Below, piece after piece: positions 24,944 through 34,342 of a stretch of DNA of 40,946 bases; positions within the stretch are counted from its first letter, which is position 1; the number at the start of each line of letters is the position of its first letter. The notes below the pieces were generated by a model. It saw only the letters and a program-made list of their open reading frames with translations. It did not search any database and had not been told where the DNA came from. The stretch lies in the NCBI GenBank assembly GCA_003661965.1, contig QMXD01000003.1, forward strand, positions 1 through 40,946, given 5' to 3'. The stretch comes from Candidatus Hecatellales archaeon (GTDB lineage Archaea > Thermoproteota > Bathyarchaeia > Hecatellales > Hecatellaceae). A program made the position numbers and the translations under genes.

Positions 24944-25054
24944 CCAGCATCCACCACCAAAACAAAAATTTTCACCAACAATAGACATAACCTACCAATA
25001 TAAAACATTAACTGTTAAAAAACCTTAAACAAAACCAGCATTTAAAACATGTAA

Positions 25055-25078
25055 TGCACTGCACTGCAGTGTCATGCA
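25055..25078. promoter_or_regulatory. Imperfect inverted repeat, candidate operator in the divergent intergenic region
   Basis: TGCA-CTG-CACTGCAGTG-TCA-TGCA, 18 of 24 positions self-complementary, perfect 10-bp core. Confidence 0.45.
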
Positions 25079-25197
25079 CACAAATAAAACCATAAGGTTT
25101 AAACCTCCGAAAAATTTAATTTAGACTTCTGCTTGATTTCTTGGGTAACTACCAAAATAAACAAGGTTCTGGTTTGAGGGTTTTACTGTTGGTCTTA

Positions 25198-31090: not shown

Positions 31091-31132
31091 CCAATAGCCT
31101 AAAGTTTTGGTCATTTTTTATGATTTTTCTTG

Positions 31133-31165
31133 GTAATACTTTTTGGGTAAATAGTAATATTTAAA
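31133..31165 (+). promoter_or_regulatory. Promoter/operator of the FmdE-domain gene (GTAATAC-N14-GTAATAT abutting TTTAAA)
   Basis: AAATAGTAATATTTA at 31149-31163, identical to 34291-34277 on the minus strand; ends 49 nt before the start codon. Confidence 0.65.
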
Positions 31166-31211
31166 TTAGGGAAAAATTTAGCTATAAGTAGAACGTTAAG
31201 AGGTGTAAACG

Positions 31212-32597
31212 TTGCCCAAAACCATGAGGTCTAAAATTTTTGCTATAACACCTATGCTTATTTTGTTTTTATCGGTGGTTTGGATAGGGGTTGCAAATGC
31301 CCAACAAAGCGTTGTTGATGAGTATCCTGAACTTAAACCTTTGACCAACTTTGTTGGTGAAGAAAACCTGTCAGTTCTGCATTTAGCTGGGTTTAAAGCA
31401 GCAAAAAGGGCTATGGCTGAGCTGGGATTTAAAAAAGGAGATGCCAACATTCTAGCCTTAACCGATGCTGGATACATAGCCAAAATAGGTGAATATACAA
31501 CAGAGAAAGCTTTAGATGGTGTCATGTTAACCTCAGGATGCTCTAGGGGTAAGGGAAACCTTGTAAACGTGCATAAACCATACAATTCTCCGTTATGGTT
31601 TGCATTCTTCGACAAAAAAAGCAAAAACTGTGTTTATCTTGAGGTAAACAGTAACCTACTAAAAACTTATCTAGACAAAGAAAAGGAGGCTAAAGAATCC
31701 ACTCTAAAAGACTTTATGAAGCTTAAAGATGAACAGATATTTACCAAGATTGCTGTTGAAAACATAGACGCAAAAAAACTACTAAAGAATCCTGAAGACT
31801 GGCAGAAAAAAATGGTGGCTAAGGTTTTTGGTGGAAACGAGTTTAGCCTAATAACCATCTGCAATGTCTGGGCTTATAAAGGGCTACCAAACGACTTCCT
31901 AAAAGCAGTTGAACTCCACGACCACATATGTCCTGGACTTACAAGCGGCTACCTAATAGCCAAATACATAGAAAAAAACTTTCCAACAAAATCTCCAAGA
32001 TACGAGTATACAGTAATAGCATGTCCACCATGGTGTAAAGATGATGTTATAATCCAATACTTTGAAACAAATGTTGGACATAAGCATATGTTTGTAAAAT
32101 GGTTAACAAAGGAACAGTCAGAAGAACTTAAAAAACACCTACCTGAAAACCTCAAAAGCAAGGATGTGGCTGAAATTGTTATCAGATGGGAAAAAGGTGC
32201 TTCAAAAGGTGAGGGTATAGTCATCGGTTTTGACTGGAATAAGGCTGTTAAGCTTTGTGGCATAAAACGTTCATGGTTTAAAGACTTTAAAACTTACAGG
32301 TGGTGGTGGACTAGACTTAAAATGGATTTATGGATGATGGACTATATAGATAAGCCTGAAGAACTCGTGGCAACAATCAAAACGTTTAACGTGAACAGTA
32401 CAAGCGAAATCTGGAAGCTTGCATCAGCAGGGGTAAATCCGTTAGCTGAGCTTGGGCTAACACCAAAACCAACACCAACCCTCGTAGAGAAGACTGTTGA
32501 AGTTATCCCGTTATGGGTTTACATAACCATAGGAGTTTTAATAGCCATAATCATTGTAATGGTCTGCCTTTACACCCTAAAACTAAGAAAAACATAG
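31212..32597 (+). CDS. Secreted, C-terminally membrane-anchored FmdE-domain (putative metal-binding) protein
   Basis: SD GAGGTG plus TTG; N-terminal hydrophobic signal ending ANA-QQ; ELHDHICPGLTSG and CPPWCKDD FmdE motifs; PKPTPT linker, TM helix, basic tail. Confidence 0.78.
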   Translation: MPKTMRSKIFAITPMLILFLSVVWIGVANAQQSVVDEYPELKPLTNFVGEENLSVLHLAGFKAAKRAMAELGFKKGDANILALTDAGYIAKIGEYTTEKALDGVMLTSGCSRGKGNLVNVHKPYNSPLWFAFFDKKSKNCVYLEVNSNLLKTYLDKEKEAKESTLKDFMKLKDEQIFTKIAVENIDAKKLLKNPEDWQKKMVAKVFGGNEFSLITICNVWAYKGLPNDFLKAVELHDHICPGLTSGYLIAKYIEKNFPTKSPRYEYTVIACPPWCKDDVIIQYFETNVGHKHMFVKWLTKEQSEELKKHLPENLKSKDVAEIVIRWEKGASKGEGIVIGFDWNKAVKLCGIKRSWFKDFKTYRWWWTRLKMDLWMMDYIDKPEELVATIKTFNVNSTSEIWKLASAGVNPLAELGLTPKPTPTLVEKTVEVIPLWVYITIGVLIAIIIVMVCLYTLKLRKT

Positions 32598-32624
32598 AAA
32601 CGATAAAAACCAATCTTCTTTTTT

Positions 32625-33194
32625 CTAAGATTGGCATATCTTGGTTTTCTTGGTTAACACTAAAACTATAACTGCTCCAACAACCCCAGACATAAAAGCT
32701 ATAGCCAAATAAAGGGGTAAAAACCTAGTTGAAGGCCATACGTGTGTATAAAAACCTATCGCCAACCATGTAACCGTTAAACATGATAGGTTTGCAATCC
32801 CTCCACCTATACCTAGCCTTGCAAAGCTTAGTTTAGGTTTACATGAAAACTCAATCATTAAACCCATAACCAAGAATGCTATTACCCCATAAACGCCAAA
32901 CCACGGTGGGTCTACAACCCCATACCACGGAGAAACAAGCATACAAAAGGCAGGTATAAGTATGGCTGTAGATACACCAGAAAGTTTTTTACACCCGGTT
33001 ATTAAGTGAGCTAACGTAACCCATAAAACAAAAATAAATCCACCAAAAAGTATCATCCCTCCAGCAGGACCAAAAATACCTAAACTGTTTAAGATGGGTC
33101 TCATAGGAATGCTTAGGTTTATTGTGGCGCTTACCCCTGCACAAACAAAAATTGTTAAAAGGTTTTTTATGGTAGAAGAATCATTGGTAGGCAT
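32625..33194 (-). CDS. Polytopic membrane protein (about 6 TM, 189 aa), ECF S-component-like
   Basis: ATG 33194 lies 10 nt after the rSAM stop (ORF track uses 33254); hydrophobic Gly-rich helices; size typical of S-components. Confidence 0.7.
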   Translation of the reverse strand: MPTNDSSTIKNLLTIFVCAGVSATINLSIPMRPILNSLGIFGPAGGMILFGGFIFVLWVTLAHLITGCKKLSGVSTAILIPAFCMLVSPWYGVVDPPWFGVYGVIAFLVMGLMIEFSCKPKLSFARLGIGGGIANLSCLTVTWLAIGFYTHVWPSTRFLPLYLAIAFMSGVVGAVIVLVLTKKTKICQS

Positions 33195-33204
33195 TTTTCT
33201 CAGC

Positions 33205-34041
33205 CTATATGATACACTTGCTACACACGGTATGCTTACCCATGTTTTTAACAAAGTCTTTGTAAGGTTGAGATTTTACTATATCTTTAACCTTGGCTGA
33301 TAGTGCATCTGCAAGATATTCCTTGGGTAGGAAGCAGCATGGGGTAACCTTAAAATCCCATGTTATATAGATACCATATTTAACCACCCTACAAGGATTT
33401 GTATGTTTACTTGGAAGAAATGTTTGAAGCTTAAGTTTTTTAGCTAAAGTTTTAATCTCACCAAAAAGTTTAGCTTCCTTTTCCTCATCTAAAGCTTTAA
33501 AGCTTGGGTTATGCTGATTAAACAGCCTATGAAGATTTATTGCTTCAACTCCCAACATTGAAGCTTCCTCAACAATTTTAGGTATCTCGTCAACGTTACC
33601 CTCATAAACTGTTATGTCCAGAAAGATCTTTGGGTCTTTAAGTTTAAACTCTTTTTTTAGCTTAGTTGTAAGCAAAATTTTTTCTGAGACTTTTTCCAGC
33701 CTTTTAAGCCTATAAACTCCAAATGCAAACTCTTTTAGACCAGAAGAAAAAAGTTTTCTTATTTTTTTCTCGTCTAGAAGGGTTCCGTTTGTTATTAAGC
33801 TTGTTGTAATTTTTCTTGAAGAGGCGTAGGCTATCATATCGTATATTTGGTTGTGGAGTAAGGGTTCACCCCAGCCATGAAAACCAATATAGGTTGGATG
33901 GTTTAGGTTTAAAAGTTTCTTAAACCCATTAAAATCCATAAAACCTATAGGTCTATTAAGCCAACTACGCATACAAATTTCACAGTTAAGGTTACAGGCT
34001 GTTGTAGGTTCAACCTGGAAGAACGGTTTACTGCCAAACAT
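33205..34041 (-). CDS. Radical SAM protein with C-terminal SPASM/twitch-type cysteines
   Basis: CNLNCEIC (CxxxCxxC), GWGEPLLH, ITNGTLL, then C...TPCCF...CSKC. Confidence 0.92.
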   Translation of the reverse strand: MFGSKPFFQVEPTTACNLNCEICMRSWLNRPIGFMDFNGFKKLLNLNHPTYIGFHGWGEPLLHNQIYDMIAYASSRKITTSLITNGTLLDEKKIRKLFSSGLKEFAFGVYRLKRLEKVSEKILLTTKLKKEFKLKDPKIFLDITVYEGNVDEIPKIVEEASMLGVEAINLHRLFNQHNPSFKALDEEKEAKLFGEIKTLAKKLKLQTFLPSKHTNPCRVVKYGIYITWDFKVTPCCFLPKEYLADALSAKVKDIVKSQPYKDFVKNMGKHTVCSKCII

Positions 34042-34047
34042 CCCAAC

Positions 34048-34054
34048 AAAAAAA
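34048..34054 (-). terminator. T7 tract between the peptide ORF and the rSAM gene (possible leaky terminator)
   Basis: Minus strand CCCA-TTTTTTTGT-TGGG-ATG. Confidence 0.35.
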
Positions 34055-34063
34055 TGGGTTGAT

Positions 34064-34228
34064 TTAGAAGCTTCTTTTTAATAATCCAAGAATTTTTGAA
34101 GCTATTTTTTCTCTTAGACCTGTTAAGATTACCCCGCCAATAACAGTTAAACCTACAATTTGACTCGTTATGACTGCTTGAAGAACTGTAGCCGTTGAAG
34201 CAGTATTAACCGCTATAGGTGTGCACAA
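34064..34228 (-). CDS. Unannotated 54-aa peptide MCTPIAVNTASTATVLQAVITSQIVGLTVIGGVILTGLREKIASKILGLLKRSF
   Basis: Only start codon in its frame (TTG), GGGAGG SD 9 nt upstream, promoter motif at the same 49-nt offset as in the FmdE gene, stop 22 nt before the rSAM ATG. Confidence 0.7.
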   Translation of the reverse strand: MCTPIAVNTASTATVLQAVITSQIVGLTVIGGVILTGLREKIASKILGLLKRSF

Positions 34229-34272
34229 GTTCCCCTTCCTCCCAAGTCTTGAGAATAGTATGGTTGTTAAAA

Positions 34273-34307
34273 TAAATAAATATTACTATTTGACACTGTT
34301 ATCTTAC
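34273..34307 (-). promoter_or_regulatory. Promoter/operator of the peptide-rSAM-membrane operon (GTAAGAT-N14-GTAATAT abutting TTTATTTA)
   Basis: 15-bp identity and the same 21-bp half-site spacing as 31133-31163. Confidence 0.65.
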
Positions 34308-34342
34308 TTCGGTTAACTGTATTTTCAGGGTAATAGGAAGCT

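Follow-up and report, generated by a model that had tools for sequence, protein, structure and literature searches.

Why should two convergent transcription units carry the same 15 bp, in the same register, in both of their promoters? The question arises in a 40,946-nt stretch of contig QMXD01000003.1 from a Candidatus Hecatellales archaeon (Bathyarchaeia), called the window below, in which a 3.25-kb accessory cassette encodes an FmdE-domain protein on one strand and a small peptide, a radical SAM/SPASM enzyme and a membrane protein on the other. The promoter of the FmdE-domain gene (+ strand) is called P1, and that of the peptide-radical SAM-membrane protein genes (- strand) P2. The source is an archaeal metagenome-assembled genome of 1.3 Mb (~39% GC, 154 contigs, 90% complete), which was compared with a set of 41 relatives; genomes G001 and G002 belong to the same genus as the window. 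From these sequence comparisons we consider it quite likely that P1 and P2 are operators for the NikR of this archaeal lineage, that they repress both units when nickel is plentiful, and that the cassette is part of the nickel regulon.

An earlier, sequence-only reading of the locus had reported an exact 15-mer, AAATAGTAATATTTA, in both promoters, with each copy ending 49 nt upstream of a TTG start (31212 on the + strand, 34228 on the - strand), running into the TATA box, and accompanied by a second GTAA half-site 21 bp upstream. All four statements hold when the sequence is read directly (coordinates in Table 1). The 21 bp are counted from start to start, so that the 7-bp half-sites are separated by a 14-nt spacer (N14), and it is the last three bases of the 15-mer that begin the putative TATA box. 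In both promoters the last base of the proximal half-site is the first base of that box, whose position at P1 and P2 is inferred from sequence; among the upstream hexamers of the genome, ATTTAA and TATTTA show the strongest enrichment, with a peak ~40-60 nt before starts. The likeness of P1 to P2 is limited to the 15-mer and the distal GTAA.A, and the remaining upstream sequence could not be aligned. The half-sites are near-palindromic in themselves (GTA-W-TAC), and those of P1 match each other at 5/7 positions as an inverted repeat and at 6/7 as a direct repeat.

Repeats of at least 15 bp are frequent in the window: direct repeats form at least 60 families, and at least 44 pairs are inverted, some of these matching exactly over 17 and 19 nt. 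An exact 15-bp match by itself therefore proves little. The unusual feature is the identical register of the 15-mer in two adjacent promoters: in 698 upstream regions, a shared run of at least 15 nt at matching offsets was seen in just one further pair, which is a true repeat element. The sequence-only reading would have given way if the motif had turned out to be a generic B recognition element (BRE) found in many unrelated promoters. A search of the whole assembly returned two exact copies, those in P1 and P2, and a single copy with one mismatch, which is intragenic (contig C78). By dinucleotide shuffles of the window, the expected number of matches was 0 both for the 15-mer and for the pattern GTAANAY-N14-GTAATAT, in a test applied to a pattern picked after seeing the data. 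The average promoter of the genome (107 aligned promoters) showed weak A-richness upstream of ATTTAW. For strict half-site pairs, defined as GT[AG][AT]NA[CT]-N14-GT[AG][AT]NA[CT], there was no genome-wide excess at N14 (12 matches, against ~6.6 per other spacing), and the promoter-placed matches were P1, P2 and one repeat-like GTGATAT pair on contig C16, 246 nt upstream of a gene.

The strict pattern matches a known signal. The NikR box predicted for delta-proteobacteria is GTGTTAC-[N13/14]-GTAACAC, with GTGTTAt and GTaTTAC listed as variants and with reversed half-sites also occurring (Rodionov et al., 2004; PMC545781), and our pattern agrees with it, variants and reversed half-sites included. 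NikR_C (PF08753) was found in 38 of the 41 relatives, the same-genus G001 among them, and 52 of their nikR loci were fetched (214 kb in total). In these loci strict pairs occurred 15 times at N14, compared with a mean of ~0.6 at each other spacing from N5 to N30, and N14 was the only enriched spacing. The boxes sit between nikR and its divergent neighbor in at least seven relatives, the neighbor being CbiM/NikM in G039 (PF01891, E=5.8e-63), NicO in G019 (PF03824, E=1e-95), an ABC transporter in G025, and, in G020, G024, G033, G034 and G038, an operon that couples a small FmdE-domain protein to an S-component-like membrane protein. Because such operons are repeatedly NikR-box targets beside nikR, it seems that the nickel regulon of this class generally includes FmdE-domain proteins. 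Near-perfect copies of the published box were found in G017, a Hadesarchaeon and G038. The NikR proteins of the window's family keep an R-x-S-x-T/S beta-strand pattern, as do those NikRs whose own loci carry the box.

A weight matrix was built on eight nikR-linked sites of the relatives, with the cassette sites excluded, as an inverted-repeat model of the half-sites. P1 reached 28.8 bits and was the top site of the genome, the next scoring 13.5. The matrix consensus is GTAWTAC-T..T......A..A-GTAWTAC, and its A..A accounts for the 5 nt by which the 15-mer precedes the half-site. Of the 15 bases, about 11-12 belong to this extended half-site, A..A-GTAATAT, and the last three to the TATA start, so the shared 15-mer would be the overlap of two constrained elements. 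With few positions left free, the exact match between P1 and P2 requires no special mechanism; gene conversion may lie behind it. Neither the strict pattern nor the matrix returned further convincing operator sites in this genome, and no box was present upstream of an energy-coupling factor (ECF) S-component gene (C9) or of an ABC transporter (C112). The second-best matrix match, at C72:1407-1434 (GTATTAC-N14-GTAAGGA, 13.5 bits), has a TATA-like CTTATATAG on one side and, on the other, the TTG start codon for a 403-aa membrane protein without a Pfam or NCBIfam family.

Within the window's own family, for which 12 genomes were searched, zero-mismatch P1-type boxes were found, such as GTAATAC-TTTTT-N9-GTAATAT followed by TTATATAA in G003 and GTATTAC-N14-GTAATAT followed by TTATATTT in G001. 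A P1-type box with a TATA box precedes cbiM/nikM by 40-75 nt in G001, G004, G013 and also G003, where two such boxes stand in tandem, and the CbiM, CbiQ and ABC ATPase of these loci were confirmed by Pfam. The P1 sequence is therefore the family's predicted operator before the canonical nickel/cobalt ECF transporter. As an aside on the G001 gene (C19, locus L194, 1597-1602), nikM reads ...aaACG CAT ATA CCT GAT GGT, that is (M)HIPDG, with ACG in the position of the start codon. This is a candidate for non-canonical ACG initiation: CbiM/NikM needs its N-terminal Met-His to function, which fixes where the start codon has to lie.

The box also recurs in the promoters of orthologous cassettes (Table 1). 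Half-sites occur there in direct as well as reversed arrangement, as in the FmdE promoter of G017 and in the literature. In nearly all peptide promoters the proximal GTAAYAY directly abuts TATA, and the half-site is followed by TTATA/TTTA in loci L041, L048, L059 and L070 and in G010 and G026. When G010, G007, G017, G026 and the Hadesarchaeon were scanned with a strict palindromic pattern (≤1 mismatch), the cassette sites were among only 1-6 matches per genome, and the other matches precede a ZnuA-type binding protein, a ChlI-like AAA protein and an S-component-like protein. Four metagenome relatives with 88-90% identity, among them L181, L182 and L184, keep P1 as GTAATAC-N14-GTAATAT and P2 as [GA]TAAGAT-N14-GTAATA[TC]. 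A separate, strongly conserved block, [AG]TAATAC-CAAAGCTATTTAAATAG..., was seen ~90 nt upstream of the cassette FmdE gene in loci of anaerobic methanotrophic (ANME)-1 archaea and Methanosarcinales (L035, L037, L038, L047 and L105). It holds one consensus half-site ~7 nt before TATA and no clear second one, and it may represent a euryarchaeal form of this control.

The genes that adjoin the cassette in other lineages are strong, if circumstantial, evidence for nickel. Genes for HypA, HypC, a HypB-type GTPase and a protein with a NikR_C domain flank it on a Thermoplasmata contig. On a Methanosarcinales contig a NifH-family gene and CbiX lie upstream, a pair that we take to be of the gene type for nickel insertion in F430 synthesis, with DUF4198, CbiM and CbiQ downstream. 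On an Archaeoglobaceae contig the cassette is followed by CbiM and an ABC ATPase. As both of its promoters carry putative NikR operators, the cassette would belong to the nickel regulon and would probably serve nickel acquisition or handling.

In E. coli, NikR is a tetramer whose two ribbon-helix-helix dimers contact a pair of half-sites that lie on the same face of the DNA. The operator proposed here would likewise consist of two 7-bp half-sites (GTAWTAC / GTAAYAY) whose starts are 21 bp, or two helical turns, apart, with P1 as a full site and P2 as a consensus proximal half-site joined to a degenerate distal one. The proximal half-site would fill the BRE position and touch TATA, and the distal half-site would lie two turns upstream. 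Because of this overlap, a nickel-loaded NikR tetramer on the box would be expected to exclude transcription factor B (TFB) and the TATA-binding protein (TBP). Plentiful nickel would thus turn off both the FmdE-domain gene and the peptide-radical SAM-membrane protein operon, and scarce nickel would release both. P2 may be the lower-affinity site, owing to its weak, though conserved, distal half. That NikR is the binder, nickel the signal and repression the effect is what we infer from the operator sequences, and the direction of regulation could differ, since Helicobacter NikR is reported to activate as well.

Several observations weigh against this assignment. No nikR was found in the assembly (90% complete, in 154 contigs) by Pfam PF08753, by tblastn with the NikRs of six relatives or by blastn with the same-genus nikR locus, and nikM/cbiM was likewise not found in this 90%-complete assembly. 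P2 scored 2.6 bits overall with the inverted-repeat matrix, its proximal half contributing 10.5 and its distal half -5.4, and the distal half-site reads better as a direct repeat. Most nikR loci, above all those in the window's own family, are without a box beside nikR itself. The box precedes a ZnuA-type binding protein in some relatives (G026), and a Methanothermobacter NikR homolog encoded beside zinc transport genes may sense zinc (PMC3087415), so that nickel is the probable signal and zinc a possible one. The sequence-only reading had proposed a NikR-like operator, with half-sites two helical turns apart, that overlaps the BRE and represses, and had named the regulator tentatively. This proposal is supported by the rarity of the motif, the published box, the nikR- and nikM-linked boxes of the relatives and the orthologous promoters; what did not follow was a nikR gene in the assembly or a strong distal half-site in P2. 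Given that nikM was not found, the cassette may stand in for NikMNQO in this genome. Among cassette-bearing Bathyarchaeia, four of five are without cbiM, but so are 25 of the 41 relatives overall, and we set this anti-correlation aside as uninformative.

The boxes could be relics, that is, true NikR-type operators brought in by the cassette, in a host that has lost nikR and nikM and in which expression is constitutive or otherwise controlled. Beyond the failure to find nikR and cbiM, this would fit the status of the cassette as an insertion relative to G002. It would also fit the end of synteny with G001 (L194) at C6:10944-11075, which falls at a tRNA gene: G001 has a NikR box and a nikM-cbiO operon exactly there, and this genome has unrelated genes, for a 93-aa protein and an acyl-CoA synthetase-like protein. 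Yet the assembly is fragmented and just 90% complete, nearly all relatives including G001 do have nikR, and none of the four half-sites is disrupted here or lost from the 88-90% identical relatives, which argues for continuing selection; we therefore regard relic sites as unlikely. We also doubt that the boxes serve a different regulator, whether another ribbon-helix-helix or winged-helix protein or a shorter NikR-like paralog, which may sense cobalt, zinc or molybdenum/tungsten. Candidates exist, since the relatives encode a second NikR-like class of 126-132 aa without the N-terminal Arg pattern, and this genome has a gene for a stand-alone 51-aa ribbon-helix-helix (CopG-like) protein (C2:10376-10531), the only weak match in the assembly to the NikR N-terminal domain. 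Another metal is suggested by the box ahead of the ZnuA-family gene in G026, by the naming of FmdE after a molybdenum enzyme operon, by the nearest model of the radical SAM enzyme, a tungsten-cofactor enzyme maturase, and by a molybdopterin oxidoreductase-like open reading frame (ORF; CHFCHGNCG Fe4S4-type motif, read by eye) that adjoins the G010 cassette. Such a regulator would have to explain why boxes lie between nikR and its divergent neighbor in at least seven relatives and precede CbiM/NikM and NicO, why their sequence fits the published NikR signal, and why the cassette neighbors elsewhere are nickel-specific (HypA/B/C and the NikK-like DUF4198).

Chance or generic similarity would make the 15-mer a strong BRE/TATA region common to two AT-rich promoters, and the upstream GTAA a coincidence. 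Although repeats of its length are abundant in the window, the 15-mer is AT-rich and contains TATA bases, and GTAATA is ~2-fold enriched upstream of genes, the generic BRE/TATA reading is contradicted by the confinement of the 15-mer to two promoters in 1.3 Mb, the weak A-richness of the average BRE and the lack of a genome-wide N14 excess. Moreover, distal half-sites cannot be BRE, and the N14 pairing recurs in the orthologous promoters of at least six other genomes and also at nikR and nikM genes, so that this explanation is largely refuted and in our judgment very improbable. Nor do we give appreciable weight to the idea that a mobile element brought the cassette in and that the inverted 15-mers are its terminal inverted repeats. 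Their inverted orientation, their placement 58 and 51 nt inside the ends of the 3.25-kb insertion and the occurrence of the cassette in other genomic contexts would suit such an element, but this internal position is not at the insertion ends, neither a target-site duplication nor a transposase or integrase ORF was seen, and in other lineages, where the genes are collinear or divergent, the boxes still stand ahead of the genes. Terminal repeats are thereby refuted as the sole explanation.

If P1 and P2 are indeed NikR operators, they offer a way to approach what the cassette does. We propose, tentatively and with rather less confidence than the operators themselves, that it is a so far undescribed, horizontally mobile nickel-acquisition or nickel-delivery system under NikR control and that pairs of FmdE-domain and S-component-like proteins form a recurrent and as yet unrecognized class of nickel transport module. 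The FmdE-domain protein, exported and anchored in the membrane, would then bind metal, the S-component-like protein would act as a permease, and the radical SAM/SPASM enzyme would modify the small membrane peptide, whose N-terminal Met-Cys-x-Pro would be invariant; the module class would extend over anaerobic archaea and bacteria (Bathyarchaeia, ANME-1/2, Archaeoglobi, Hadesarchaea, Dehalococcoidia and Desulfobacterota).

The individual genes were annotated as listed in Table 1. The FmdE-domain protein has a hydrophobic N-terminus with ANA-QQ and a C-terminal transmembrane segment with a basic tail, as read from the sequence, and no solved structure is related to it by sequence. Peptides with an MC[ATSV]P[IV] N-terminus, a transmembrane segment and a basic C-terminus are encoded directly upstream of the radical SAM gene in ~27 of the 74 cassette-related loci described below. 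The nearest NCBIfam models of the radical SAM enzyme, TIGR04317 and TIGR04311, both matched far under their cut-offs. The best PDB fold matches of the membrane protein were ECF S components (5EDL, RibU, ThiT) with TM-scores of 0.53-0.66 but weak Foldseek E-values (≥0.15), and by sequence it matched neither CbiM nor any Pfam or NCBIfam family. Its longest-ORF start (TTG 33254) overlaps the radical SAM gene by 50 nt. As the homologs are 174-210 aa long, the protein probably begins at ATG 33194, 10 nt after the radical SAM stop, which gives 189 aa. A candidate homology between this protein and the nikR-linked S-like membrane proteins was not detectable (hhalign probability 0.4%). Those nikR-linked operons, at loci L107 (G033), L111 (G024), L117 (G020), L137 (G034) and L154 (G038) and also at L041 5205-5888, pair an S-component-like protein of ~175-190 aa with a small FmdE-domain protein of ~140-230 aa.

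Table 1. Features of the cassette in the window, and predicted operators in the promoters of orthologous cassettes.
Feature	Position	Strand	Details
Accessory cassette	31091-34342		3.25 kb; two convergent transcription units, each with a promoter bearing a predicted operator
P1 predicted operator	31133-31160	+	GTAATAC-N14-GTAATAT; full NikR-type box; half-sites 31133-31139 and 31154-31160
15-mer, P1 copy	31149-31163	+	AAATAGTAATATTTA; end of spacer (A..A), proximal half-site and TATA start
Putative TATA box, P1	31160-31167	+	TTTAAATT; abuts proximal half-site
Shine-Dalgarno sequence	31200-31205	+	GAGGTG, 6 nt ahead of TTG; same GAGGTG before the start in orthologs
FmdE-domain protein, 461 aa	31212-32597	+	PF02663, E=4.6e-16, residues 235-300; N-terminal signal peptide, C-terminal membrane anchor
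Membrane protein, 189 aa	32625-33194	-	Six helices, candidate ECF S-component-like fold; AlphaFold2 pLDDT 87.8, pTM 0.85
Radical SAM/SPASM enzyme, 278 aa	33205-34041	-	PF04055, PF13186
Peptide, 54 aa	34064-34228	-	MCTPIAVNTAS...; one transmembrane segment, basic tail; no Pfam or NCBIfam match
Putative TATA box, P2	34273-34280	-	TTTATTTA; abuts proximal half-site
15-mer, P2 copy	34277-34291	-	Second exact copy
P2 predicted operator	34307-34280	-	GTAAGAT-N14-GTAATAT; half-sites 34307-34301 (degenerate distal) and 34286-34280 (strong proximal)
FmdE promoter	G010:C125		TTATTAC-N14-GTAATAT, then TTTTATAG
FmdE promoter	G007:C107		CTATTAC-N14-GTAATAC, then TTTTATAA
FmdE promoter	G017		GTAACAC-N14-GTAACAC
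FmdE promoter	Hadesarchaeon L041		Perfect GTGTTAC-N14-GTAACAC, then TTATAAAT
Peptide promoter	G010		GTATTAC-N14-GTAAGAC
Peptide promoter	G026		GTATTAC-N14-GTAATAC
Peptide promoter	G017		GTGTTAT-N14-GTAACAC
Peptide promoter	Thermoplasmata L104		GTATTAC-N14-TTAATAC

Cassette-related loci numbered 74 across archaea and bacteria, in Bathyarchaeia, Hadesarchaea, Methanomethylicia, Thermoplasmata, Archaeoglobi, ANME-1/2, Methanothrix, Dehalococcoidia, Desulfobacterota and others, and the cassette was present in four of the 41 relatives. Its gene order varies by lineage and may be convergent, divergent or collinear. In the window it is inserted between a hemK-like methyltransferase gene and dcd, which are convergent; in G002 (contig C49) these two genes lie ~5 nt apart with nothing between them. 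Metagenome contigs that are ~88-90% identical in nucleotide sequence to the cassette carry other neighbors, and by these sequence comparisons the cassette is horizontally mobile. In L181 (1890-5261), L182 and L184 the copies lie between glycosyltransferase and ParB-like/helix-turn-helix genes, and they retain ~50 nt like the 3' end of the window's hemK-like gene and ~20 nt like that of dcd. The cassette thus seems to have moved along with tiny flanks.

Bacterial NikR operators are familiar, and comparative genomics has predicted a signal of this kind; to our knowledge, experimentally defined NikR regulons are scarce in archaea, and FmdE, which takes its name from the formylmethanofuran dehydrogenase operon, has had no explanation ever since. 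The operator type described here is one already known, and the new lead is the link of the cassette to nickel. The operator shares with the delta-proteobacterial NikR box (PMC545781) 7-bp half-sites, a 13-14 bp spacer, a total length of 27-28 bp, the core GT..TAC / GTA..AC and a location upstream of nikM-type transporters. It differs in that the half-site center is A/T in the window's family (GTAATAC, GTATTAC, GTAATAT) and the spacing is N14 only, in that the window's sites read better as direct than as inverted repeats, and in that the delta-proteobacterial box overlaps -35/-10 elements, whereas the archaeal sites overlap BRE/TATA. In E. coli the nikABCDE operator is GTATGA(T)-N13/14(16)-(A)TCATAC, through which NikR exerts nickel-dependent repression of the nickel uptake operon (PMC545781, PMC2667541). 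The half-sites are two turns apart there as here, but the half-site sequence differs and the E. coli promoter is of the sigma-70 type; correspondingly placed in the protein, the DNA-reading strand has R-x-T-x-T in E. coli NikR and R-x-S-x-T/S in the window's family. Archaeal NikR, known from a Pyrococcus horikoshii structure and from methanogen homologs, belongs to the same family as the proteins of the relatives, with ribbon-helix-helix and NikR_C domains. No experimentally established operators or regulons of archaeal NikRs were found in the literature that we searched.

Compared with the Nik/CbiMNQO ECF nickel/cobalt transporters (with NikK/NikL), the cassette has the same predicted operator in the window's family. 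If the modeled S-component-like fold of the cassette protein, with its weak E-values, is right, both systems would combine a membrane component that captures small molecules with small membrane and extracytoplasmic accessory proteins. In loci of Archaeoglobaceae and Methanosarcinales the two stand next to each other. Unlike Nik/CbiMNQO, the cassette encodes neither a T nor an A component, and the radical SAM/SPASM enzyme and the MC.P peptide are found in it besides. A 2009 survey detected only three nickel/cobalt transporter families in archaea (PMC2667541). Our literature search found no papers linking FmdE-domain proteins, the radical SAM/peptide module or S-component-like partners to NikR or nickel, nor any that connect FmdE with ECF transporters or radical SAM enzymes. 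The analysis provides a concrete predicted operator for Bathyarchaeia, GTAWTAC-N14-GTAAYAY abutting TATA, together with the genes that it marks, and hence a functional handle on a conserved four-gene cassette without an assigned function and on FmdE-domain proteins generally. The cassette is widespread among organisms with a very high nickel demand, including ANME and methanogen relatives (F430), users of carbon monoxide dehydrogenase/acetyl-CoA synthase (CODH/ACS) and users of hydrogenase. Were the proposal of a nickel system to hold, a further system, with a radical-SAM-modified peptide, would extend knowledge of trace-metal acquisition in anoxic sediments.

One other promoter-region element was noted in this genome. 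A TGCA-rich intergenic repeat (e.g. TGCATTGCACTGCATTACATGTTTTAAA, GTGTAATGCAGTGCAATGC...) occurs in many promoter regions, in the window at ~24988-25141 and elsewhere at C2:12006/12113, C2:49360/49553, C18:13229, C27:1309, C1:30212, C7:9299, C62:3535 and C84:1520. One exact 28-nt copy of it lies at the same offset from two gene starts.

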